From sequence record OR352954: 64,000 nt of DNA, one strand, 5' to 3'. This document shows positions 1,462 to 61,144 of the stretch, piece after piece. Source of the stretch: Escherichia phage AV124. A model generated the notes under the pieces. That model was not told where the DNA came from, ran no database searches, and saw only the letters and a program-made list of their open reading frames with translations. The position numbers were made by a program, and so were the translations under genes. Positions within the stretch are counted from its first letter, which is position 1. Each line of letters begins with the position of its first letter.

Positions 1462-3492
1462 ATGACCGCAAAATATGAAACCGTACCTTATGCTGACTTC
1501 GTAAAAGCTCTGAAAGCTCAGTTCGCTGTCATGCAAGCGCTGGGTGCGCTTTACACGGTCGATGTACCGAAAGATGAACTGTACGACCTGTACCTTGATT
1601 CTTTCCCGGAAGGCACCAACCTGATGTATAAAGAGCGCCGTGAATACGACTGCAACTGCTGCAAGAGCTACATCCGTACTCTGGGCCGCGTAGTTGCTAT
1701 TCACAACGGCAAGCTGGTATCTATTTGGGACGTTAAAGTTGGTGGTTATTACCAAGTAGTTGCCGATGCGATGAAAGCGCGTGTTGAAAGCTCCGAGATC
1801 CGCGATCGCTTCTTCCACTTCGAAGGCCGCGTTGGTACTGAGAGCAACGTAGTTCTCCTGGAAAATGGGAAAACCAAAACCTGGACCCACTTCCATCAGG
1901 CCCTGCCTCGCGAACTGGTTAAACGTGGTGAAGATATCCCTTCTGCCCTGGGTGAGTACCGTGACAACGCAACTGTGCTGGCACGTTCTCTGAAAGATAT
2001 CGATATGGACTCTGCCGAAACGGTAATGGACCTGATCAACCAAGGCTCTCTGTACCGTGGTGATGAGAAAAAGCACATTGTTGCTGCCTTTATTAAGGCG
2101 AAACGTGCATACGACAAAACGCCGGAAGACCAGCGAATGAACTTCTGCTGGAAACAAAGTGAAACGCTGGGTAGACTGGGTCGCTTCCGTAATGATGTCA
2201 TCGGAACACTGATGAGCGATCTGGCAGAAGGTGTTGATCTTGAAGCCGCAGTGAAGTCCTTTGAAGACAAAGTCTCAGGGACCAACTACAAACGTACTAC
2301 TGCTCTGGTAACTCCGGGCATGATCAAGGCAGCACAAGAGAAAGTTGAAGCCCTCGGCTTGACTGAATCTCTGGCACGTCGCTTTGCGGTGACCTCTGAC
2401 CTGACGATCAACAACGTGTTGTTTGCTGACCGTTCTGCAAAGGCCCAAATGAACGTATTCGAGCAACTGGCAGCGTCAACCAAAAACGCGCCTAAGTCAC
2501 TGTCGAAAGTGGAAGAGATCAGCATTGAGGATTTCATCAACAACGTTCTACCGAAAGCGGACACTATCGAAGCGCTGGTTGAAGGTCGTCTGACACCGAA
2601 CCTGATGAGCTTGGTTGCCCCGGCAAACGCAGGTGCTCCTAACCTGTTCAAATGGGATAACGGCTTCTCCTGGTCGTATAATGGCGAAGTAACTGACTCC
2701 ATCAAGGAGCGTGTGAAAGCCGCTGGCGGCAGCGTGACTGGTGACCTGCGTGTTTCGTTGTCTTGGTACAACAGTGATGACCTCGACCTGCACGTATTCG
2801 AGCCTGGTGGCGGTCAAATTTACTTCGGTAACAAACGTGGTCGCTCAACGGGTACGCTGGATGTGGATATGAATGCCTATGGCAAGTCAGACGCACACCA
2901 TCCGGTTGAGAACGTTACGTGGGAAAATGAGCGTAATATCACGGAAGGTGTTTACAAGGTTGTTGTTAACAACTATAATAAGCGCATGACTGATCGCGTT
3001 GGCTTCGAAGTCCAGATGGAATACAAAGGCCAAGTGTTCAACTTCGCATACCCGCAAGCTTTGGGTAATAGCAAGAGCCAGACCGTTGTAACATTTAAGT
3101 ATTCTCGTGCGAAAGGTGTTGAAATTGTAGACAGCATCGGGCATACTAAGCAATCTAAAGAAGTGTGGGGCGTCTCTACCGAGACCTTCCAGAAAGTTTC
3201 TCTGGTGCTAAATTCTCCTAACTTCTGGGATGGTCAGACCAAAGGTAACAAACACTACTTCTTTATGCTGGAAGGTTGCATTAACCCTGACGATACTCGT
3301 GGCTTCTACAATGAGTATCTGCGTGACGAGCTGCATGAGCATCGTAAAGTGTTCGAAGTGTTGGGTTCCAAGCTCAAAGCTGAACACTCCGCTGATCAAC
3401 TGAGCGGCCTGGGCTTCTCGTCTACCCAGCGTAATGAGTTGGTTGTGAAGGTGACTGGTTCTTTCAACCGCACCCTGAAGATTAAGTTCTAA
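1462..3492 (+). CDS. large hypothetical early protein (676 aa)
   Basis: Long ORF; start taken at internal ATG 1462 (MTAKYET) with RBS AGGAGAA; no motif recognised; hairpin immediately downstream. Confidence 0.7.
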   Translation: MTAKYETVPYADFVKALKAQFAVMQALGALYTVDVPKDELYDLYLDSFPEGTNLMYKERREYDCNCCKSYIRTLGRVVAIHNGKLVSIWDVKVGGYYQVVADAMKARVESSEIRDRFFHFEGRVGTESNVVLLENGKTKTWTHFHQALPRELVKRGEDIPSALGEYRDNATVLARSLKDIDMDSAETVMDLINQGSLYRGDEKKHIVAAFIKAKRAYDKTPEDQRMNFCWKQSETLGRLGRFRNDVIGTLMSDLAEGVDLEAAVKSFEDKVSGTNYKRTTALVTPGMIKAAQEKVEALGLTESLARRFAVTSDLTINNVLFADRSAKAQMNVFEQLAASTKNAPKSLSKVEEISIEDFINNVLPKADTIEALVEGRLTPNLMSLVAPANAGAPNLFKWDNGFSWSYNGEVTDSIKERVKAAGGSVTGDLRVSLSWYNSDDLDLHVFEPGGGQIYFGNKRGRSTGTLDVDMNAYGKSDAHHPVENVTWENERNITEGVYKVVVNNYNKRMTDRVGFEVQMEYKGQVFNFAYPQALGNSKSQTVVTFKYSRAKGVEIVDSIGHTKQSKEVWGVSTETFQKVSLVLNSPNFWDGQTKGNKHYFFMLEGCINPDDTRGFYNEYLRDELHEHRKVFEVLGSKLKAEHSADQLSGLGFSSTQRNELVVKVTGSFNRTLKIKF

Positions 3493-3542
3493 TTAAACAG
3501 CCCCTTCGGGGGCTAATATTGAAATCATAGAGGAGATAAAAG

Positions 3543-3938
3543 ATGACCACTACTAACCTGTTCGAAGTTGCCACCCGTAAAAAACTGCGTTTTGCAAGTC
3601 CGAAAGGTCTACTGACCACAGAAGATCTGTGGGATCTGCCGATGACTGGTAATACCAGCCTAGATACGGTTTCCAAACTGGCTAACCGTGATGTGAAAGC
3701 ATCTGCTGAAGAAAGTTTCGTTGTCGAGGCCAGTGCTGTAAATGGCGAAGCAAACCTGAAGCTGGATATCCTGAAGTACATCATCTCGGTGCGTAAAGCG
3801 GAGATCGCGGATCGCCAGGCAGCGAAAGAGAAGGTTGAGCGTAAGCGTAAACTTCTGGACCTGCTGGCAGAGAAGGATAACGAGAAAGATGCAGCGATGA
3901 CTCGTGAAGAAATCCTGAAAGAGCTGGAATCTCTGTAA
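3543..3938 (+). CDS. hypothetical protein (131 aa)
   Basis: ORF with RBS GAGGAGA upstream. Confidence 0.6.
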   Translation: MTTTNLFEVATRKKLRFASPKGLLTTEDLWDLPMTGNTSLDTVSKLANRDVKASAEESFVVEASAVNGEANLKLDILKYIISVRKAEIADRQAAKEKVERKRKLLDLLAEKDNEKDAAMTREEILKELESL

Positions 3939-3983: not shown

Positions 3984-4343
3984 ATGAAAGTAACTGGCAA
4001 ACAAACTGTTGTACAGAACGTGGAAGTAGATATCTCTGATGAAGAGATCATGAATATTGTCAAGGCACAAACACCAGACTACCTCGCAGATGTCCTCACC
4101 AAAGAACTGCTGAGGAACTTCATCTATAGCTTGCCAGCAGATTTTACTGGTGAGCGGGCCGTGTGGGAAACACGTAAAAGAGGATATGAACCGTTTCTTG
4201 TACTTGTCCATGTAGACGCTTGGTGGGACTACCACAACAATGTTGGTGTGGATGAAGAAGTCAGACCGCTCACCGAAGAAGAAACGGCAAAATATAATAT
4301 GATTTGCGGTTTGCGGGACTACATTAAGCATCTGCAAAAATAA
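3984..4343 (+). CDS. hypothetical protein (119 aa)
   Basis: ORF with RBS GGAGAA upstream. Confidence 0.6.
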   Translation: MKVTGKQTVVQNVEVDISDEEIMNIVKAQTPDYLADVLTKELLRNFIYSLPADFTGERAVWETRKRGYEPFLVLVHVDAWWDYHNNVGVDEEVRPLTEEETAKYNMICGLRDYIKHLQK

Positions 4344-4349
4344 TTCAAA

Positions 4350-4384
4350 AGCCTCTTGACTTCATGGTTGAGGGGCTTTATTGT
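4350..4384 (+). terminator. terminator-like hairpin with T-rich tail
   Basis: Imperfect stem GCCTCTTGAC/GTTGAGGGGC followed by TTTATTGTT. Confidence 0.4.
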
Positions 4385-4412
4385 TATGGAAGCTAAATAA
4401 CCTGGGGGGTGT

Positions 4413-4580
4413 ATGTTAGAGGCAATCAATTATTTCTTTTTAGTTCTGGCAGCAGTGGCCTGTGTTTCTTGTGCCTTCGGTGCTGTCTTTTCAAAAGATG
4501 AAACACACCGTACGGTGTACGTGCTTTGTGCAGTCATCAACGCCGCTTTTACGGTGCATCTCTGGAGTATCGCCCTATGA
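4413..4580 (+). CDS. small hydrophobic protein (55 aa)
   Basis: Short ORF below the track cutoff, translated by eye (MLEAINYFFLVLAAVACVSCAFGAVF...); predicted TM helix; stop overlaps next start. Confidence 0.4.
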   Translation: MLEAINYFFLVLAAVACVSCAFGAVFSKDETHRTVYVLCAVINAAFTVHLWSIAL

Positions 4581-4771
4581 AGCTTTCACATTTTATTTAT
4601 GCTGTGTTAGGCCTTATGGCCCTGACCATGCTGACAACGTTGGGGCTTTCATTTACAGCAGGTCATGAGCAACAAACAAAAGAAATTTTGGGCGCAGGTT
4701 TCGGTATGTTCATGCTTGAATTCTTCCTGCTTCTTTTGGGAGGCGTGATTGTGGATACTTCCGGCTGGTAA
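4577..4771 (+). CDS. small membrane protein (64 aa)
   Basis: Start at internal ATG (MKLSHFIYAVLGLMALTMLTTLG...) overlapping the upstream stop; two hydrophobic segments. Confidence 0.5.
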   Translation: MKLSHFIYAVLGLMALTMLTTLGLSFTAGHEQQTKEILGAGFGMFMLEFFLLLLGGVIVDTSGW

Positions 4772-4781
4772 GGAGAAATAA

Positions 4782-4988
4782 ATGCGTGGATTTATGCCTT
4801 TGGTGAAACCTTTAGTAATCGTTGGAATAATTGTGGTAGTGGCGCTTTTTATTGTTGACACAGCAGATACCGTCACTCATAATTGTAAGCCTAACGGTGA
4901 GCAACGCCTTGCAAACAGTGCGGATGGCATTGTCGTTGAGAACAAACTGATCTGCGACGGTGGTCGCGTGAAGTGGTCTCGCTACTAA
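4782..4988 (+). CDS. small membrane protein (68 aa)
   Basis: RBS AAGGAGA; N-terminal hydrophobic helix. Confidence 0.55.
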   Translation: MRGFMPLVKPLVIVGIIVVVALFIVDTADTVTHNCKPNGEQRLANSADGIVVENKLICDGGRVKWSRY

Positions 4989-5023
4989 ATCCTGACTAAA
5001 TAATCTCAAGAGGAGAAAAACAA

Positions 5024-6112
5024 ATGACGATTACTCGCGGCCTTATCTTCGGGAAGTTTGCACCCCTGACCAACGGGCATATTGAATTCATTCGCCAGGC
5101 GGCTTCGCAGGTTAGTGCTCTGTACCTGTTCCTGTCATATGATCAGAAATTCGTTGATGCACAACCAGAATGGATTCGTCCAAAGCTGGGGCTTGCTGAT
5201 CGTTATCGTGACCTGCTGGATGTTATTGCCGATGAGGGACTTGACAACGTGAAGGTAGACTACGTTGATGAGTCGAATATCCCAGGATACCCTGAAGGCA
5301 GTGCTGCCTATGCAAAACTGATCCGTGAAAAGCAACCGTTCGTTAAGTACGATTTTGCTTTCTCTTCTGAGCCGGAGTATGAGTCTTACTTCAGTGAGTT
5401 CTTCCCTGAAGCGAAGCATGTAGTTATCGACGCAGAACGTAAAGCTGTTCCTATCTCAGCCACGATGATCCGTAATGATCCGTACAACAACTTCTACAAC
5501 CTAGCGTGGCCTGCACGTAAGCGCTTCATGAAGAAGGTTGCCATCATTGGTGTTGAGAGTACGGGCAAGACAACCCTGACAAAACATCTGGCGCATACCT
5601 TCGGTGCTGGTTGGATTCCTGAGATCGGACGGCTTATCTGTGAGCGTGAATATCACTCCAGTGAGTTCGCAATGTCTCGTGAAGACTACCTGCGTATCGC
5701 TATGGAGCACCGCCTGAAGGAGATGGAGTTGGCTGGTTGGGGTGATCGTGGGGTTATGTTCTCTGACACCACAAACCTGATCACACACTTCTCTGGTGTT
5801 TGTGCTGATAAGATCGACTACGCAGACCTGTTGTTCCGGACACTAAGCCGTGAAGAGAGCTACAACTTCTATGACCTGTTCCTGCTCCTCACACCAGAGG
5901 TTCCGTGGGTTGCTGATCCTCTTCGCTTGCAGGATACACCAGAGAAACGTAAAGAAACCCATTCTTTGCTTGACACAATGATCAGAGCATCTTACGATAC
6001 AAGCAAGGTGGTGGTTATCTCCGGCAGTGATTACGAAGAGCGTACTCAGAGAGCTGAAGAAGCTGTCCGTAAATTGCTGAATATCAAAGGAGAACAAGAT
6101 GGATCAAACTAA
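5024..6112 (+). CDS. bifunctional NMN adenylyltransferase / ribosylnicotinamide kinase (NadR-like, no DNA-binding domain)
   Basis: N-terminal nucleotidyltransferase motif GKFAPLTNGH (HxGH type); second half has P-loop IGVESTGKTT as in the NadR kinase domain; RBS AGAGGAG. Confidence 0.8.
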   Translation: MTITRGLIFGKFAPLTNGHIEFIRQAASQVSALYLFLSYDQKFVDAQPEWIRPKLGLADRYRDLLDVIADEGLDNVKVDYVDESNIPGYPEGSAAYAKLIREKQPFVKYDFAFSSEPEYESYFSEFFPEAKHVVIDAERKAVPISATMIRNDPYNNFYNLAWPARKRFMKKVAIIGVESTGKTTLTKHLAHTFGAGWIPEIGRLICEREYHSSEFAMSREDYLRIAMEHRLKEMELAGWGDRGVMFSDTTNLITHFSGVCADKIDYADLLFRTLSREESYNFYDLFLLLTPEVPWVADPLRLQDTPEKRKETHSLLDTMIRASYDTSKVVVISGSDYEERTQRAEEAVRKLLNIKGEQDGSN

Positions 6113-47062: not shown

Positions 47063-48562
47063 TTATAATCGTGTATACATAGTCGGAGCAACAATCCTTG
47101 GGATTACGACAGGTCTGATGATCTCCGTTTTCTCCAGGAAGTTAATACCTGAAGAGATGGCGTCAACCCAATCGTCCTTACGGGACACGGTGCTTCGCTC
47201 GCCATTAAATTTCTCAAGCTCATTCATGAGGGCTTCATATGTCTTTGCATCAAAACTACTACGTACAATACGGACAAAGCCTTGCTGTGCAAGCTGGGCA
47301 AATGGTGCAAAACGAGTAAGTTTCGACTTGTTGCCTGGCGTAGGGTCTTTCTCAACCACATAACCATCCGCGAGCAATGCTCTTGAGCTGGTGAGGAATT
47401 CGCTTATACCAGCTTGGCCTGGGTCAACTGAGAAAATAATCGTTACATCATCGCCATCATGTTCTGCTTGTTTTTTGATAATTGCATCACGTTCGCCAGC
47501 CTTCTTACAGAAGCGGCCCTGCGTCCCGGTAGAATAAGGACCATCATCAACAAAATCTGGGTGATAGTCACCAGAAAGATAATAGAATCCCTCGGTATCT
47601 TTACTTACCTTGACCGATGCAGTAAAGTCAGGGAACTTGTTGCCTGTTGAGCGTTCAGTTCCCGCCTTGTCGTATGGTCTTACAGAAGTGCAGCCTAAAG
47701 GTAGCGTCGCGACTTCTTTCAAGAAAGACCTTTGGAAATAGTTTGCACCTTCTGGGCGAACCTTCCAGTTACCATACAACAGCTGTGCTTTTTCAACTTC
47801 AGGAAGACCTTCAAGAAATGCAAGATAATCTGGGTTGTTTTCCAGCATTGGCGGATTATCGAAAATTGTTGCGCTAATAAACGAGAAGGAGAGCGGCTTA
47901 GGCTTCTTGTGGATATCTTCACCATCCCAGTATCGTTCAATCAATTCTTCTGCGCTATCACCCCAAATGAAATCACCATCACGACGGATGAACCAACGGA
48001 TAACACCATCACGTTCTGGGATAGGATAACCATCCTCGTCGAGATACCAATCTATCAACTCTTTAATCTTATGATCAGGATCAGGGTTACAAGAGATGAC
48101 CATACGGCTTGGGTATTTAGATTCGGAACGTAAACGAGACATCAGATATTCGATCTGCGTCCATTCAAACTGTGTTCCTTCGTCAAACCCTACAAAAGTA
48201 TACTGAAGGCCCTGATGAGAAAGCTTGTCTTTCTCATATTCCATGTGCGACCATTTAACTTTTGCACCCGAAGGGAAGATAGCCTTCAGGTCTTTTTCTC
48301 GGAAGCGCGGCTTCCACTCAGGCGACAATTCACTATAGATACCACGAGCTGTTTCATACAAACCACCCGCACCGACAATCTGCGGTGTAAGTCTTCGGAA
48401 CATGATACAGTTTGAGCGAGGATCATCTATTAAGGCTAAGGGCATAAGTTGCAACAGGTAAGATTTACCTGATCCCGCAGCGCCCCCAATGATCAGGATT
48501 TGCGCCTTGTTTTCCAGGATCATTTTCTGCTTGGGGCTGGCGGGTCCAAAAGTGGTACTCAA
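47063..48562 (-). CDS. terminase large subunit, TTG start
   Basis: Walker A P-loop IIGGAAGSGKS near the N-terminus; TTG start with RBS GGAGGT. Confidence 0.8.
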   Translation of the reverse strand: MSTTFGPASPKQKMILENKAQILIIGGAAGSGKSYLLQLMPLALIDDPRSNCIMFRRLTPQIVGAGGLYETARGIYSELSPEWKPRFREKDLKAIFPSGAKVKWSHMEYEKDKLSHQGLQYTFVGFDEGTQFEWTQIEYLMSRLRSESKYPSRMVISCNPDPDHKIKELIDWYLDEDGYPIPERDGVIRWFIRRDGDFIWGDSAEELIERYWDGEDIHKKPKPLSFSFISATIFDNPPMLENNPDYLAFLEGLPEVEKAQLLYGNWKVRPEGANYFQRSFLKEVATLPLGCTSVRPYDKAGTERSTGNKFPDFTASVKVSKDTEGFYYLSGDYHPDFVDDGPYSTGTQGRFCKKAGERDAIIKKQAEHDGDDVTIIFSVDPGQAGISEFLTSSRALLADGYVVEKDPTPGNKSKLTRFAPFAQLAQQGFVRIVRSSFDAKTYEALMNELEKFNGERSTVSRKDDWVDAISSGINFLEKTEIIRPVVIPRIVAPTMYTRL

Positions 48563-48651: not shown

Positions 48652-48942
48652 TCACTTTTGAGGTGTAAATATGTTACGAATGTATGCCTGAAGGATAAGC
48701 AACTTGCTACGTGTATCTGCTGCTTCAAGATTATTTTTCTTAACAATAGCACTGTTTTTAGCGTTATCAGCACCATAGGGAAGTGGTGTTGGGTCAGAAG
48801 GGGGAATCATCGCGTGAGCAGGCGGCTTAGAAAGCACCTCAGAGGGATTAAACTTCTCAACCACTGGAACTACCTTCTGTGGAGACTCGCATCCAACAAG
48901 CATGATTACAGAGAGGAATATGGCAAGCAAACTCTTTCTCAT
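48652..48942 (-). CDS. o-spanin (outer-membrane lipoprotein, Rz1-like)
   Basis: Signal peptide with lipobox LVGC; Pro-rich mature part; overlaps the i-spanin stop by 4 nt. Confidence 0.65.
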   Translation of the reverse strand: MRKSLLAIFLSVIMLVGCESPQKVVPVVEKFNPSEVLSKPPAHAMIPPSDPTPLPYGADNAKNSAIVKKNNLEAADTRSKLLILQAYIRNIFTPQK

Positions 48943-49343
48943 TTAACCCCCAAGCTTTCATTATAGATATCAACAAAGTCGTTATCCAGCCCAAACTTTT
49001 TACCCGCTTCAGATTTGTTATATGCCTGTTGTTTTTCATCGAGTCGGGATCTAAGTAAATCATTCTTAGCCTTCTCTTCTGCAAGCTGGCGACTCAGTTC
49101 ATCAGAGAAGTCTTGCTGCCCATTTTTGAAATCTTGATTTGCATATTTGTTGTTTCTCATTTGCAGAACCCATTTGTTATCCGTATCATTAACCCCACGG
49201 CTATAGGCCTGCTGTATTTGGTCATCATACCACCACTTAACTTCAAAAGCGCCCCACAGGAGCGCCAGAGAAAGGACAGCAATGATAACCAGTTTGGTGT
49301 GTCCCTTTATAAAGGTCCAAACCACACTGATAAAATTTATCAT
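48939..49343 (-). CDS. i-spanin (Rz-like)
   Basis: N-terminal TM helix followed by charged coiled-coil periplasmic domain; ATGA overlap with upstream gene. Confidence 0.6.
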   Translation of the reverse strand: MINFISVVWTFIKGHTKLVIIAVLSLALLWGAFEVKWWYDDQIQQAYSRGVNDTDNKWVLQMRNNKYANQDFKNGQQDFSDELSRQLAEEKAKNDLLRSRLDEKQQAYNKSEAGKKFGLDNDFVDIYNESLGVK

Positions 49344-50797
49344 GAGATATCCCCATCACAATCTAATAATTCAACAATAGTCACCTTATTCCGAGGAGCC
49401 TTATCTTCTCGGTTTACAGACACTCGCCCATCTCCCTCGTACTCAAGGATAAGCGGGTCTTCCACGATAACCTTAAACAGACAAGCACCAGGTTCTATAC
49501 CCCCAACGTGCCAACTCCCCTGCACCCCATTCTTGCATAGCAGCTTATACCTCTCTTGTGCAGCATCAAGATCAAAATAAATACTGATCTTATCTAGCAT
49601 CTCTGGATTGTCGATGCTATTGCTATTAAGGCCGAATACGTGTTTTTCGGTATGCGCTTGCATCATGTAAAAATGCACAGCACTAGATACAGCCCAGAAC
49701 TCCTTAAAGTACAGGCGATCGGTGTTTTTACGCAGGCGTTGGAAAACATTGAAGATATCTTTAGCTTCAAGATTGAAACGCCGTTGCCCTTTACGCTTGT
49801 CGGTGATAGTGGCAATCGTACTGATAGTAATATCCCCTGCGTTATCCAGTTTATCAAATAATCGTTCAAATGAAAACGGTTCTTTTGTATCGAAGAGTTC
49901 TTCAACGTTTGTCCCGTACATACCACTAAGATGCTTTTTGGCATCCTCCCAGCTTTCCATTTTGAGACCTGCAACGGCAACACCCAACTTCATTGTTTCT
50001 CGACGGGAGATTGTATACCCACGGGCCTCGTACTTTGACGCTCGGAGCATACTGATGATCGGGTAGTCTGTCGCTGGATTAAGAACCAACACCTTCTGTG
50101 CAGCATGTTTAAGAAAACGACTGTCAAACACCCATGTTTCATCACCAAATGAGAAGGCACCCATATTGATGGTATAGTCAAACTTATCAAAGATCTGCCC
50201 AGCGTTCTCAAATACCGAGAATGCAATGCATTGCATCACCGGATTAGAACCCTCTGAAAACATAATGCTTTTGTCTGTCATGCCGATATTACGAACATAT
50301 GAGACTTTCTCCTTTCTACTTTCGAGCAGTTTTTCAATACCATCCCAAGTCGATTCAGAGATATCAGACAGATCAAAAGGGCAGTCACTGGCAAACTTAT
50401 CTTCCATCTCCACGATCTCTTGCTTAGACACTTTCTGAGAAAGAACCTTGAATCTTGGCGCACGGGATTCCCATACCTCTTTCCCATTGTCTAAAATGAA
50501 GAAATCACGATAAACACGTTTCTCTTCATTGTATCCCTTCGTTTTAGGCGACAGGTCATGTTCACCTTTTCGTAGGTCTATGTCGATCATATAAGTAATA
50601 AAGATCTCTAGGTCATCCCATGAACGGAAGTACAGGTCGAGATCATTAACTTCCCGGTTGGTAAAGAGAGCCGTGATAGCGCCTCCTGCGATTATAACAT
50701 CGAGGCTGCGAAGGATATGGTAAATATCCTCAGAGAAAAAACTTTTTAGTAAACGGTATTCTCGAAGATGTTCACTCTTCTCGTAAGTGTGGATCAT
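49340..50797 (-). CDS. Pol-beta-superfamily nucleotidyltransferase, CCA-adding-enzyme-like head motif (485 aa)
   Basis: Start at ATG 50797 (MIHTYEK) with RBS AAAGGAGACC; motif VIIAGGAITALFTNREVNDLDLYF (GGA, 11 residues, DxD) has the same spacing as the tRNA nucleotidyltransferase / poly(A) polymerase head domain but lacks the RD of GGxVRD. Confidence 0.55.
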   Translation of the reverse strand: MIHTYEKSEHLREYRLLKSFFSEDIYHILRSLDVIIAGGAITALFTNREVNDLDLYFRSWDDLEIFITYMIDIDLRKGEHDLSPKTKGYNEEKRVYRDFFILDNGKEVWESRAPRFKVLSQKVSKQEIVEMEDKFASDCPFDLSDISESTWDGIEKLLESRKEKVSYVRNIGMTDKSIMFSEGSNPVMQCIAFSVFENAGQIFDKFDYTINMGAFSFGDETWVFDSRFLKHAAQKVLVLNPATDYPIISMLRASKYEARGYTISRRETMKLGVAVAGLKMESWEDAKKHLSGMYGTNVEELFDTKEPFSFERLFDKLDNAGDITISTIATITDKRKGQRRFNLEAKDIFNVFQRLRKNTDRLYFKEFWAVSSAVHFYMMQAHTEKHVFGLNSNSIDNPEMLDKISIYFDLDAAQERYKLLCKNGVQGSWHVGGIEPGACLFKVIVEDPLILEYEGDGRVSVNREDKAPRNKVTIVELLDCDGDIS

Positions 50798-50829
50798 TCT
50801 GGTCTCCTTTAGTAAGTTACTTTTAGAGT

Positions 50830-50864
50830 GTACCAGAAAAAGAAAAGCCCCGCAAGAGCGGGGC
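50830..50864 (-). terminator. rho-independent terminator between tRNA array and nucleotidyltransferase gene
   Basis: On the minus strand: hairpin GCCCCGC-TCTT-GCGGGGC followed by TTTTCTTTTTCT. Confidence 0.55.
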
Positions 50865-50908: not shown

Positions 50909-50984
50909 TGGTTGCGAGCAGCGGAATCGAACCCCTCTGAACAAGCTTATGAGACTCGTGAATTCACCAGAATTCTAGCTCGCA
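50909..50984 (-). tRNA. tRNA-Met/Ile2 (anticodon CAT)
   Basis: Cloverleaf read by eye: acceptor TGCGAGC/GCTCGCA, D-arm GAAT-TCTGGTGA-ATTC, anticodon stem CGAGT/GCTTG with wobble pairs, loop CTCATAA, T-loop TTCGATT; CCA encoded. Confidence 0.7.
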
Positions 50985-53789: not shown

Positions 53790-53871
53790 TGGCGAAGGCG
53801 GCAGGATTCGAACCCGCATACTCCAATTACTCGATTAACGACGGGTTAGAAGCCCGTTGAGATACGCCCTC
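53790..53871 (-). tRNA. atypical tRNA-like gene (anticodon-like loop TCT, no recognisable D-arm)
   Basis: Acceptor GAGGGCG/CGCCTTC and T-arm GCGGG-TTCGAAT-CCTGC are clear; only one further hairpin ACGGG-CTTCTAA-CCCGT, followed by a 23-nt unpaired region; CCA encoded. Confidence 0.4.
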
Positions 53872-54259: not shown

Positions 54260-54334
54260 TGGCTTCTCGAACAGGAATCGAACCTGTACCGTCCCTATCG
54301 TGGGACCGCTCTAACCAAAGTAAGCTATCGAGAA
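54260..54334 (-). tRNA. tRNA-like gene with 6-nt anticodon-position loop
   Basis: Acceptor TTCTCGA/TCGAGAA, D-arm GCTT-ACTTTGGTTA-GAGC, T-arm ACAGG-TTCGATT-CCTGT; stem GTCCC/GGGAC closes loop ACGATA; CCA encoded. Confidence 0.5.
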
Positions 54335-57186: not shown

Positions 57187-57264
57187 TTGGTGACCCCCGG
57201 AGGATTCGAACCTACCTACCTCTCGATTATGAGTCGATTGCTCATACCTTATGAGCTTGAGGGC
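57187..57264 (-). tRNA. tRNA-Met/Ile2 (CAT)
   Basis: Anticodon loop CTCATAA, T-loop TTCGAAT, acceptor GGCCCTC/GGGGGTC with wobble pairs; CCA encoded. Confidence 0.65.
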
Positions 57265-57267
57265 CTT

Positions 57268-57340
57268 ATCGTTCAGAGTGGACTTGAACCACTGACCTTA
57301 TCCGTATGAAGAACATGCTCTACCAACTAAGCTACTGAAC
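57268..57340 (-). tRNA. tRNA-Met/Ile2 (CAT), no encoded CCA
   Basis: Acceptor CGTTCAG/CTGAACG, D-arm GCTT-AGTTGGTA-GAGC, anticodon arm TGTTC-TTCATAC-GGATA, T-arm AGTGG-TTCAAGT-CCACT; 3-prime end lacks CCA. Confidence 0.65.
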
Positions 57341-57365
57341 GGTTGTACTGTTGATGTGGTAGATA

Positions 57366-58605: not shown

Positions 58606-60282
58606 TTACAGTTGAGCGGCTGCGCGTTCACGAATCGTTGTCAGGTCTTCATCGACAATCAATTTACCGTTGTAGAACACACGACGCAGTTCATTATCTT
58701 CAGACTGTACTTCTTCCAGTTGGCAATTGTCAATCAGTTCTAACTGACCGAACATGTTGCGAACAACTTTGAGGAAGCCTTTCGCAGATTTCTTACTGAG
58801 GTCGGTCTTAGGCTCTTTGACAACCATGATCTGCTGACCATCAATCACAGCACCAGTTGCCTTCACAGCCATGCCCAGTGAATCGCGGGTTGTATACTGA
58901 GTGGTGAAAGAACCGACGCCGTAAACAATGTTGCTGGATGCGAAGCCTTTTTCTTTCAGACGTTCAAAGATGTCTTTTGCACGAGCAACAGTGATTGAGT
59001 CACCGTAGATCAGACCAACGTGGGTGTCGAGGACCTTGTAACCTTTGGAGTTAACTTCACCACCAAAGATCTCCCACAGGCACTGAATTGCACCAATTGC
59101 CTCATGACGAGTAATCTCTTTATCGTCATCATCTGTCTGTGACAGAAGAACATAACGGTCGGTGTCTTTGAAGTATGCAACTTCTGTCTTCAGTGCGAAG
59201 GAACCTTTGTTATAGAAACCGTCTTCTGTTTCGAATTCTTCAATTCGATAACCAGCAATGATATGTTCAGGAATGCCGGAGTCAGGACGGAAAACAACAC
59301 GACCATCACGTGCCATGATTTCCTGTTTCAGGATCGCTGCTGCTTTGGTGATAATAGCCCAGAAATCATAGCTGTCTGCTACGTAGGAAACAAAACCTTT
59401 CGGGAAAATTTCCGTGATATAGCGTTTCAGGAACTCAACTTCAGCCAGAAAACGTTTCTGGTCGAGGCTCATAAACTCTTGTGTTACAGTATTCTCTTCG
59501 ATTTCTTTTACAATAAATCCGATGTTCGTGGTTGCAACAGAGTGTTCAGATGCAGGAATAGAACCAGCAACGAACTTGCCTTTCATGTTGTAATAACGAC
59601 GAGCATACAGAATCGCTGGGATAGTGTCTGTACCCATAGAGTTGATCAGTTGACCGAATTCGCTCTGTGCTGCGTCGTGAGTACCAGCTTCACCGCGATA
59701 TGCGAAGCAGTGGTTCTGGAATGCAACATGGTCGTTGTTATCACAGGTCGCAGCAGCCCATTTTTCGGACAGCTTGCGATACTGCCAGAACGTCGTTGCA
59801 GTTGTGATAGTTTTCCAAGTTTCTGCGGAGATCACACTTTCCAAGAAGTTAGGCAACCAGTAAAAATCCGGGTGCGTATTCTGGATTGTAAACATTGGGA
59901 TCTGAACCGGAGAAAGCGTTCCTTCTGGAAGAGCACGGATTTCCAGAGGAAGATAACCGAGATCATGAAGAGCCTCAAAGCCCCAGGTTTCTACCATGCC
60001 AATGCCGATGCTGGAGTCGCAAACCTCACGATAATCAGCAACCGCTACTTCTTTCGGGAGGTTGAAGAAGTTATTGTTGAACATGTCGATAAGGAACCAC
60101 TTAATAAATCCCTGAAGGCCAGCAAACATGACACGCTGGTCGTTATCAGCGAAGTGAATGAAGTGCTTCGCGTTACGAGGGGTCATGTTATCCTGAACAA
60201 TTTCAGAACGTTTATCATACATGGAGATGTGTGAAGGTTTGTAAAAGTCAGCGAACAGGATAGGACTTTCTTGATTAAGCAT
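58606..60282 (-). CDS. nadV: nicotinamide phosphoribosyltransferase (Nampt)
   Basis: Start at ATG 60282 with RBS AAGGAGAAA; N-terminal LFADFYKPSH resembles the Nampt signature (LLATDSYKVTH in the human enzyme); size about 558 aa; adjacent to prs. Confidence 0.75.
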   Translation of the reverse strand: MLNQESPILFADFYKPSHISMYDKRSEIVQDNMTPRNAKHFIHFADNDQRVMFAGLQGFIKWFLIDMFNNNFFNLPKEVAVADYREVCDSSIGIGMVETWGFEALHDLGYLPLEIRALPEGTLSPVQIPMFTIQNTHPDFYWLPNFLESVISAETWKTITTATTFWQYRKLSEKWAAATCDNNDHVAFQNHCFAYRGEAGTHDAAQSEFGQLINSMGTDTIPAILYARRYYNMKGKFVAGSIPASEHSVATTNIGFIVKEIEENTVTQEFMSLDQKRFLAEVEFLKRYITEIFPKGFVSYVADSYDFWAIITKAAAILKQEIMARDGRVVFRPDSGIPEHIIAGYRIEEFETEDGFYNKGSFALKTEVAYFKDTDRYVLLSQTDDDDKEITRHEAIGAIQCLWEIFGGEVNSKGYKVLDTHVGLIYGDSITVARAKDIFERLKEKGFASSNIVYGVGSFTTQYTTRDSLGMAVKATGAVIDGQQIMVVKEPKTDLSKKSAKGFLKVVRNMFGQLELIDNCQLEEVQSEDNELRRVFYNGKLIVDEDLTTIRERAAAQL

Positions 60283-60343
60283 GTTTTGTTTCTCCTTTGT
60301 TTGTTTAATAGGGCGATTGTACGCCCACTTATTCATTTGTCAA

Positions 60344-61144
60344 TTAAAAGTTTTCGGTCCAGTCGTGGTACGCATAGATTTCATCAACGCCGCCTTCGTA
60401 GATAACTTCTTTGCCGAAGGAAAAGATACCGTGTGTTACGTAAAGAATAACACGTTTTGCACCTTTTGCCTTCAATGCTTGTGCCAGGGCAATGAATGTG
60501 CGACCACCATCGCAGATATCATCGACAATAACACACTCGCGACCTTCAACATCACCGAAAACAGCAGTCCCGGTAATTTCATTTGTCTTCAGATCGCGCA
60601 CTTTTCCAGCTTCCACCAGAGGGAGGCGGAGACGATCGGAAACTTTCTGAGCTTTTTTACGTGCTCCGGCGTCAGGTGCCACGATAACAACATCTTTTCC
60701 AACCAGGCCTTCATGGAATTTCGCAATAAGAGCATCCTGACCACGAATTTTAACGTTGTTAAGTAGTGCTGCGGAGACATCGCTGTGCGGATCATCGACA
60801 ATTATCTTATCAAACCCAAGAGAGTTGACGATATTTGCGAAAACTTTGATGGATAACGCTTCACCAGGTTGCATTACGCGGTCCTGACGTGCATATGGAA
60901 TATATGGCAAGTGCAAAGTAAATTGTGCAGTATGATGGAGACCTTCAAGGCGAGAACATGCATCCACCAACATGGCAAGTGCCATAACATCAGTAGAATT
61001 TTTAATTTTCGCAGTGATGTCTACGAAACCAATACCACCTTTTGGGGTATGCGTCATGTCAATTTTAACCTGTTCTTCACCACCTTTGAACGTAAAGTGA
61101 TCAACAGGAACTACCAGTTTGTTCAGACGAAGTTCTAAACTCAT
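60344..61144 (-). CDS. prs: ribose-phosphate pyrophosphokinase (PRPP synthetase)
   Basis: Type I phosphoribosyltransferase PRPP-binding motif VIVDDICDGGRT plus upstream VIVAPDAGA. Confidence 0.8.
   Translation of the reverse strand: MSLELRLNKLVVPVDHFTFKGGEEQVKIDMTHTPKGGIGFVDITAKIKNSTDVMALAMLVDACSRLEGLHHTAQFTLHLPYIPYARQDRVMQPGEALSIKVFANIVNSLGFDKIIVDDPHSDVSAALLNNVKIRGQDALIAKFHEGLVGKDVVIVAPDAGARKKAQKVSDRLRLPLVEAGKVRDLKTNEITGTAVFGDVEGRECVIVDDICDGGRTFIALAQALKAKGAKRVILYVTHGIFSFGKEVIYEGGVDEIYAYHDWTENF

Follow-up and report, generated by a model that had tools for sequence, protein, structure and literature searches.

We identified the protein encoded on the minus strand at positions 49340 to 50797 of a 64,000-nucleotide stretch of DNA from Escherichia phage AV124 (OR352954; this whole stretch is called the window below) as an unannotated, divergent Gad2 protein (Gabija anti-defence 2). 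Gad2 is a known family, PF26128 in Pfam, which an earlier note on this DNA, made from the sequence alone, had missed. The 485-residue protein combines a predicted nucleotidyltransferase core of the class II CCA-adding enzyme and poly(A) polymerase type with a C-terminal domain of ADP-ribosyltransferase-like fold, and we favour, with moderate confidence, the reading that it is an enzymatic anti-Gabija factor, which would protect the phage from the GajAB nuclease-helicase system of its host. The family itself already has a name and a Pfam entry; what is new here is a divergent member that had gone unannotated and whose insertion is particular to its lineage. The window belongs to the genus Mydovirus (Vequintavirinae), with 94-97% DNA identity to the Klebsiella phages vB_KpnM_BIS47, KNP2, DP and KP12 and to Proteus phage Mydo (about 97% for BIS47, KNP2 and DP), and the gene is labelled "hypothetical protein" in all five of these genomes.

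Searches of a large protein database returned 55 homologs, all 55 of which carry a precomputed match to PF26128.2, including P0001, which is 97% identical to the window protein at full coverage; PF26128 is named Gad2 in the gene-context table. The Pfam copy that we scanned directly lacks the PF26128 model, so that a negative scan there does not mean that there is no family, and the protein and five of its homologs gave nothing useful against it. The scans of the protein against NCBIfam and PADLOC yielded insignificant matches only, and a literature search on "PF26128" found nothing. Among the PHROGs, the protein has a full-length match to PHROG 16176 (function unknown, E 1e-268) and a weak local match over residues 29-73 to PHROG 1614 ('nucleotidyltransferase', E 2e-6). 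We located the gene of the experimentally studied family member of phage SPbetaL7 (GenBank OQ921347.1, 109563..110765, annotated Gad2), and an hhalign comparison of our family profile with this protein gave a probability of 100% and an E-value of 1.7e-65 over 327 columns; since the alignment spans residues 9-455 of the query and residues 2-371 of Gad2, the two proteins share both domains. BLASTP with an ortholog 93% identical to the window protein also matched SPbetaL7 Gad2 (E 4e-29 and 4e-11), and tBLASTN searches with the window protein or with SPbetaL7 Gad2 returned 138 and 140 phage records, respectively, with the same make-up by phage genus. At E <= 1e-3 the family comprises 4,446 clusters (50% identity), and 699 at E <= 1e-30.

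Gad2 of SPbetaL7 has 400 residues, with a nucleotidyltransferase domain predicted by AlphaFold; knockout of gad2 renders SPbetaL7 fully sensitive to Gabija, and co-expression of a Brevibacillus prophage homolog with Gabija abolishes the defence (10.1101/2023.05.01.538930). That study counted 170 homologs in phages and prophages (10.1101/2023.05.01.538930), so the family, at about 4,400 clusters, is much larger than first reported. The companion paper on the Gabija structure makes no mention of Gad2, and a search of titles and abstracts for Vequintavirinae and Gabija returned none bearing on this gene. The window protein and SPbetaL7 Gad2 are homologous over nearly their full length, have the same two-domain layout and are both acidic; D52 and D54 of the former correspond to D45 and D47 of the latter, and the motif B-like and motif D-like segments described below are the same. 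They differ in an 88-residue helical insertion (residues 78-165) found in the window protein only, in their origin (a temperate Bacillus siphovirus for Gad2, a lytic Klebsiella myovirus for the window protein) and in their genomic setting, as Gad2 lies in the SPbeta anti-Gabija locus whereas the window gene lies between a tRNA array and spanin/terminase genes.

The reading frame described earlier is real; it starts with an ATG at 50797, with AAGGAG ahead of it. The gene and the features around it are as follows.

49340..50797, minus strand: coding sequence of the Gad2-family protein, 485 residues plus a TGA stop (open reading frame and translation)
50804..50809, minus strand: Shine-Dalgarno sequence AAGGAG, 6 nt 5' of the ATG (read from the sequence)
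50837..50864, minus strand: intrinsic-terminator-like hairpin and T-run between tRNA-Met and the coding sequence (consensus scan: 7 G-C pairs, loop of 4, tail TTTTCTTTTT)
49340..49343, minus strand: ATGA stop/start overlap of the Gad2-family gene with the i-spanin gene (sequence ...ATCTCATGATAAAT...)
48939..49343, minus strand: i-spanin of 134 residues, a neighbour and not a part of the enzyme (PHROG 4297, Rz-like spanin, E 2.3e-51)
48652..48942, minus strand: o-spanin of 96 residues with lipobox LVGC, a neighbouring gene (PHROG 1267, Rz-like spanin, E 2.9e-24, and translation)
47063..48562: terminase, continuing the operon 48652..50797 of the Gad2-family gene and the spanins

In the program-made list of open reading frames the same frame is lengthened to a TTG at 50944, overlapping tRNA-Met and the terminator-like hairpin. 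We set this extension aside because it runs into tRNA-Met and the terminator and because the homologs all begin at the ATG that corresponds to 50797. The terminator that had been noted at the end of the tRNA array is indeed present, as the hairpin GCCCCGCTCTTGCGGGGC with a T-run at 50864..50847, just past tRNA-Met (50909..50984); this strong terminator divides the array from the Gad2-family gene and the spanin operon. The 50-nt gap ahead of the coding sequence showed no sigma-70-like promoter in a consensus scan. The ATGA overlap with the i-spanin gene is likewise in the sequence, and the annotations of phages Mydo and 4MG show an identical overlap of 4 nt. The putative anti-defence gene heads the terminase/portal block and is translationally coupled to the spanins (operon 48652..50797 onward).

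We modelled the protein with AlphaFold2 from 40 sequences (mean predicted local distance difference test score, pLDDT, 79.8; predicted template modelling score 0.80), with low confidence confined to the insertion and the linker at 325-342. The domains and motifs are placed as follows.

49832..50797, minus strand: nucleotidyltransferase core, class II CCA-adding enzyme/poly(A) polymerase-like head and neck, residues 1-322
50627..50698, minus strand: motif A, residues 34-57, VIIAGGAITALFTNREVNDLDLYF, with the glycine turn and D52 and D54 (alignment to PcnB, conservation, PHROG 1614)
50303..50566, minus strand: helical insertion, residues 78-165, lineage-specific (pLDDT 56-79)
50153..50200, minus strand: motif B-like segment, residues 200-215, GQIFDKFDYTINMGAF, with invariant D207 (aligned to PcnB RRDFTINS and Cca RRDLTINA)
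50006..50080, minus strand: motif D-like segment, residues 240-264, NPATDYPIISMLRASKYEARGYTIS (aligned to PcnB motif D)
49772..49831, minus strand: low-confidence linker, residues 323-342 (pLDDT < 50 at 325-342)
49343..49771, minus strand: C-terminal domain of ADP-ribosyltransferase-like fold, residues 343-485

The earlier note had reported a head motif like that of CCA-adding enzymes and poly(A) polymerases at the very start of the protein. The motif VIIAGGAITALFTNREVNDLDLYF and its spacing of GGA, 11 residues and DxD are as described, and its position is residues 34-57 rather than the N-terminus. It is no chance resemblance, as G38, G39, D52 and D54 are nearly invariant among the homologs and the predicted structure places them in a Pol-beta-type fold. 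The Pol-beta head and neck characteristic of class II CCA-adding enzymes and poly(A) polymerases is present in the model, at the N-terminus, where its lack would have spoken against the earlier proposal. Structure comparison gave values of 10.6 for E. coli poly(A) polymerase I (3aql), 8.9 for TENT5B (6jyj), 10.1, 9.5, 9.3 and 7.2 for the CCA-adding enzymes 3h37, 1ou5, 9kma and 1miv, and about 8.5 for the Aquifex CC- and A-adding enzymes 3wfo and 4wby, with only 171-188 residues aligning to the CCA-adding enzyme and poly(A) polymerase structures. Of the comparisons that the earlier note had proposed, those with the CCA-adding and poly(A) polymerase folds thus succeeded by structure, while the PF01743 model had no match in the Pfam scan at E up to 10, and neither models nor folds of the CD-NTases were matched; a role in cGAS-DncV-like signalling was rejected. 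Sequence and profile searches of the PDB sequences found no nucleotidyltransferase match, and it was structure comparison alone that found the fold relatives.

The hhalign alignments to E. coli PcnB and Cca (sequences taken from NC_000913) are statistically weak (E 0.004 and probability 8% for PcnB; probability 0.3% for Cca). The register of the PcnB alignment still tells something, as it brings IAGGAITSLF..NDLDxYF opposite motif A, IFDKFDFTINMGAF opposite RRDFTINS of motif B, and NPxTxYP--IISMLRxxKYxxRGYTIS opposite motif D. In motif A, the GG and the DxD are present and invariant, and the RD of GGxVRD is replaced by T42 and S/A43, confirming the earlier remark that this pair is missing. In motif B, D(F/Y)TIN(M) is present with an invariant D207, and D204 and K205 stand where RRD has its two arginines. 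In motif D, the EDxxR signature is absent, as its E and D lie opposite a gap and its R opposite the near-invariant S249, and only R252 and K255, farther downstream, are kept. In class II enzymes, CTP and ATP are selected by a protein template made up of the EDxxR residues. The earlier statement that the remaining 400 residues match nothing recognisable therefore does not stand, since motifs B and D can be recognised and the C-terminal domain has a known fold. A class II core that lacks the base template may be a useful structural addition, as far as the predicted model goes.

For conservation we aligned 197 sequences, namely the window protein, SPbetaL7 Gad2 and 195 cluster representatives. 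All positions conserved at 85% or more lie within residues 37-308. Of the 197 sequences, all have D207, T243, P246, K255 and Y256; G38, G39, D52, D54, Y56, R252 and F203 are each found in 196, and M212 in 195. The insertion at residues 78-165 has an alignment occupancy of only 9-28% across these homologs, and its sequence and length differ even among the Vequintavirinae-type ones. Because G38, G39, D52, D54 and D207 are essentially invariant in the 197 homologs, the window protein, with its three acidic and retained basic residues, is probably an active enzyme and not a degenerate scaffold; on the same ground we rejected a catalytically dead binder.

The C-terminal domain of the predicted model has an ADP-ribosyltransferase fold by structure comparison. 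Its relatives include BC2332 (PDB 2aua), itself classed as diphtheria-toxin-like by structure, and the RNA 2'-phosphotransferase KptA/Tpt1, at sequence identities of 6-15%; further fold matches are TreTu, PARP15, pertussis toxin S1, IcmQ, diphtheria toxin, Arr, Tne2, ParT, MbcT, CC0527, AcrF11 and DarT. The fold is shared with BC2332 and KptA/Tpt1, but a dedicated re-alignment of the C-terminal region found none of the H-Y-E, R-S-E or Tpt1-type R-H-R-R motifs conserved in the Gad2 family, and no polar residue in residues 343-485 is conserved across the family. The domain is variable or absent in the wider family, with many representatives matching profile positions ~9-258 only and an alignment occupancy of 31-84% in this region among the 197 sequences. 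We read it as an accessory binding module and not as a second catalytic centre, and its fold, as modelled, may likewise be a useful structural addition. The extreme C-terminus (residues 470-485) follows the pattern (I/V)(E/D)(S/C)xG(D/E)(I/F)(S/T), conserved in the Vequintavirinae-type homologs, and the 30 residues before it are variable. Several of the distant Gad2 homologs P0049-P0053 end in ...LPF (TDTLPF, QLPLPF), resembling clamp-binding or SSB-tail peptides. Foldseek with the full model against BFVD gave, besides the phage homologs, matches at E 1e-6 to 1e-2 in Pithovirus, Klosneuvirus, Pandoravirus and an entomopoxvirus. The proteins matched carry annotations as ankyrin-repeat, F-box or uncharacterised proteins, and the matches suggest that giant viruses have a related module resembling a nucleotidyltransferase.

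The gene neighbourhoods of the homologs differ between lineages. The order tRNA array, Gad2-family gene, i-spanin, o-spanin, terminase and portal is conserved in Mydo, in Seunavirus 4MG (48% protein identity) and in a phiTE-like metagenomic contig with 26 tRNAs upstream. We also inspected 11 loci outside the Vequintavirinae-like lineage (GAP32, FBKp34, Vibrio S4-7, BUCT083, SPbetaL7 and six metagenomic contigs) and found no tRNA gene within their 3-8 kb flanks; the adjacency to tRNA genes is thus confined to the Vequintavirinae-like lineage and is not family-wide. Outside this lineage the homologs have neighbours typical of early or accessory regions and are not beside lysis genes. In one locus (L016), a homolog without the C-terminal domain (2922..3773) lies directly 3' of an Acb2/Tad1 hairpin gene of PF24729 (2636..2863), and a DNA polymerase III beta-clamp gene (4045..5106) lies two genes downstream of it. 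PF24729 is the anti-CBASS and anti-Thoeris sponge family, and the locus resembles an anti-defence gene cluster. Another homolog lies 0.7 kb from a Mu-Gam-like gene, a single case in which the Pfam match is marked weak, and others are near DNA ligase genes or, in the GAP32-type jumbo lineage, near RNA ligase 1 and PNKP. End-binding proteins of the Gam type are reported to keep RecBCD out and so to license Gabija (PMC12407980), and because of this report the Gad2-Gam neighbourhood is at least coherent with an anti-Gabija role. The context of the distant homologs fits counter-defence or DNA-end biology.

In the anti-Gabija reading that we favour, protection would be catalytic, with a nucleotide transferred to a hydroxyl of the target in an Mg2+-dependent reaction, rather than stoichiometric caging as by Gad1. 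The intact metal-binding DxD and the third invariant Asp would form the active site of a divergent class II head and neck. Gad1 is like Gad2 in its phenotype and in its genomic locus in SPbeta-like phages, but has no sequence similarity to Gad2 and binds around the GajAB complex; the conserved catalytic site suggests that the Gad2 family, unlike Gad1, is enzymatic. As for the acceptor, we would rank a polynucleotide 3' end first, because all the close structural relatives add tails to the 3' ends of RNA and because Gabija works on the ends of DNA, and a Gabija subunit or a small nucleotide second. We infer that the Klebsiella-phage member would have the same anti-Gabija phenotype as the characterised ones and that this phenotype would need catalysis. 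The earlier suggestion of a counter to host defences is thus kept in spirit, with a changed target, as the documented target of the family is Gabija and not an anticodon nuclease. Several points weigh against this interpretation. The gene heads an apparent late block (spanins, terminase and portal) and is coupled to the i-spanin gene, an unusual setting for an anti-defence gene; its product is only about 28% identical to SPbetaL7 Gad2 over the aligned columns and carries the 88-residue insertion (residues 78-165) that Gad2 does not have; the family is uniformly acidic, with an isoelectric point (pI) of 5.3 for the window protein, a family median of 5.4 and 5.2 for the C-terminal domain, compared with 9.7 for PcnB, which disfavours a general polynucleotide-binding surface; and the mechanism of Gad2 was listed as not elucidated in a February 2026 review (PMC12904381).

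The tRNA array itself bears on one of the alternatives. ARAGORN reports 21 genes in it, and Rfam adds two tRNA-like genes, making 23; the following three entries differ between the two programs.

57191..57265, minus strand: tRNA-like gene (Rfam tRNA model, 42.3 bits; not reported by ARAGORN; CCA follows)
53793..53871, minus strand: tRNA-like gene (Rfam tRNA model, 34.9 bits; not reported by ARAGORN; CCA follows)
54260..54334, minus strand: 'tRNA-???' with a two-base anticodon and an odd anticodon loop (ARAGORN; absent from the Rfam gathering-threshold scan)

CCA is encoded in 22 of the 23 tRNA-like genes, the exception being tRNA-Met at 57269..57341, as the earlier note had pointed out. That note had proposed completion or repair of tRNA 3' ends, and an enzyme serving the phage tRNA array in this way, or countering nucleases that trim tRNA ends, would be in keeping with the closest solved folds (CCA-adding enzymes and poly(A) polymerase), with the position of the gene directly after an array of 21-23 tRNA genes in the window and likewise in Mydo, 4MG and the phiTE-like contig, with the one tRNA-Met lacking an encoded CCA, and with the GAP32-type jumbo lineage, where RNA ligase 1 (Rnl1) is 1.5 kb and PNKP 3.3 kb away from the homolog. 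However, the protein has none of the EDxxR templating residues and neither the RD of motif A nor the RR of motif B, PF01743 is unmatched at the permissive threshold given above, nearly all of the tRNA-like genes already encode CCA, the 11 loci of other lineages have no tRNA gene in the flanks fetched, and the validated member, from SPbeta-like phages, has an anti-Gabija phenotype. In addition, class II tRNA nucleotidyltransferases and poly(A) polymerase I (PF01743; 3aql, 3h37, 1ou5, 9kma, 1miv) share the head and neck fold with the window protein, but it has no significant match to their sequence models and lacks their RD, RR and E-D-R, and where they have a tRNA-binding body and tail it has the acidic ADP-ribosyltransferase-like domain. 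We consequently consider tRNA repair improbable. A general RNA-tailing enzyme (a poly(A) or poly(N) polymerase) acting in host takeover or RNA turnover, with an indirect effect on Gabija, seems to us equally hard to sustain, since the Brevibacillus homolog is non-toxic and yet inhibits Gabija fully (10.1101/2023.05.01.538930), the protein is acidic where PcnB is strongly basic by the pI values given above, and the RNA-binding C-terminal region of poly(A) polymerase I is absent.

Somewhat less improbable, although still unlikely in our view, is a non-polynucleotide target, which would be either GajA or GajB, nucleotidylylated in the manner of MNT or GlnE, or a small nucleotide that would keep the nucleotide-sensitive Gabija system off; given the acidity throughout the family, an acceptor that is a protein or a small molecule is still a serious rival to a polynucleotide end. 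To about the same slight degree we entertain the idea that Gad2 enzymes are terminal transferases derived from CCA-adding enzymes and poly(A) polymerases, lacking a template for C and A, that would modify tRNA ends or the termini of the phage DNA, which Gabija inspects; in that case the ligand recognised by the ADP-ribosyltransferase-like domain would be a phosphate at the end or NAD/ADP-ribose. The ABC-ATPase/TOPRIM relatives of Gabija, OLD and PARIS, have been shown to have tRNA-cleaving activity, and if the substrate were tRNA, Gabija would be tied to tRNA cleavage through these relatives, and the retention of the gene at the end of the tRNA array by the Vequintavirinae would be accounted for. 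The ATGA coupling to the i-spanin gene and the order of gene, spanins and terminase conserved across Vequintavirinae-like phages could bring to mind a role in lysis, for instance as an unconventional endolysin or a holin partner. But neither domain has a muralytic or membrane fold, both having other folds, the Pfam, PHROGs and NCBIfam searches gave no lysis family, and the homologs of other lineages lie away from lysis genes. The position 5' of the spanins is therefore conserved synteny and not evidence for lysis; such a role is effectively refuted by the folds, and we give it almost no weight.

Returning to the anti-Gabija factor, Gabija is described as a highly prevalent defence system (PMC12407980), and Mydovirus and other Vequintavirinae phages are candidates for Klebsiella phage therapy. 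The Gad2 identity of a "hypothetical protein" predicts a testable host-range determinant. The anatomy described here also names D52, D54, D207, R252 and K255 as residues for work on the mechanism of Gad2.

Two adjacent genes farther along the window, beyond the tRNA array from the Gad2 homolog, have matches of a different kind.

58606..60336, minus strand: match to the PHROG 'nicotinamide phosphoribosyl transferase' (E 1.6e-193)
60344..61144, minus strand: match to the PHROG 'ribose-phosphate pyrophosphokinase' (adjacent gene, E 8.5e-95)

We take such a Prs-like and NAMPT-like pair to be characteristic of NARP1 (Adps and Namat), a pathway by which phages reconstitute NAD+. If it is NARP1, the pair at 58606..61144 is a probable second counter-defence locus of this phage.

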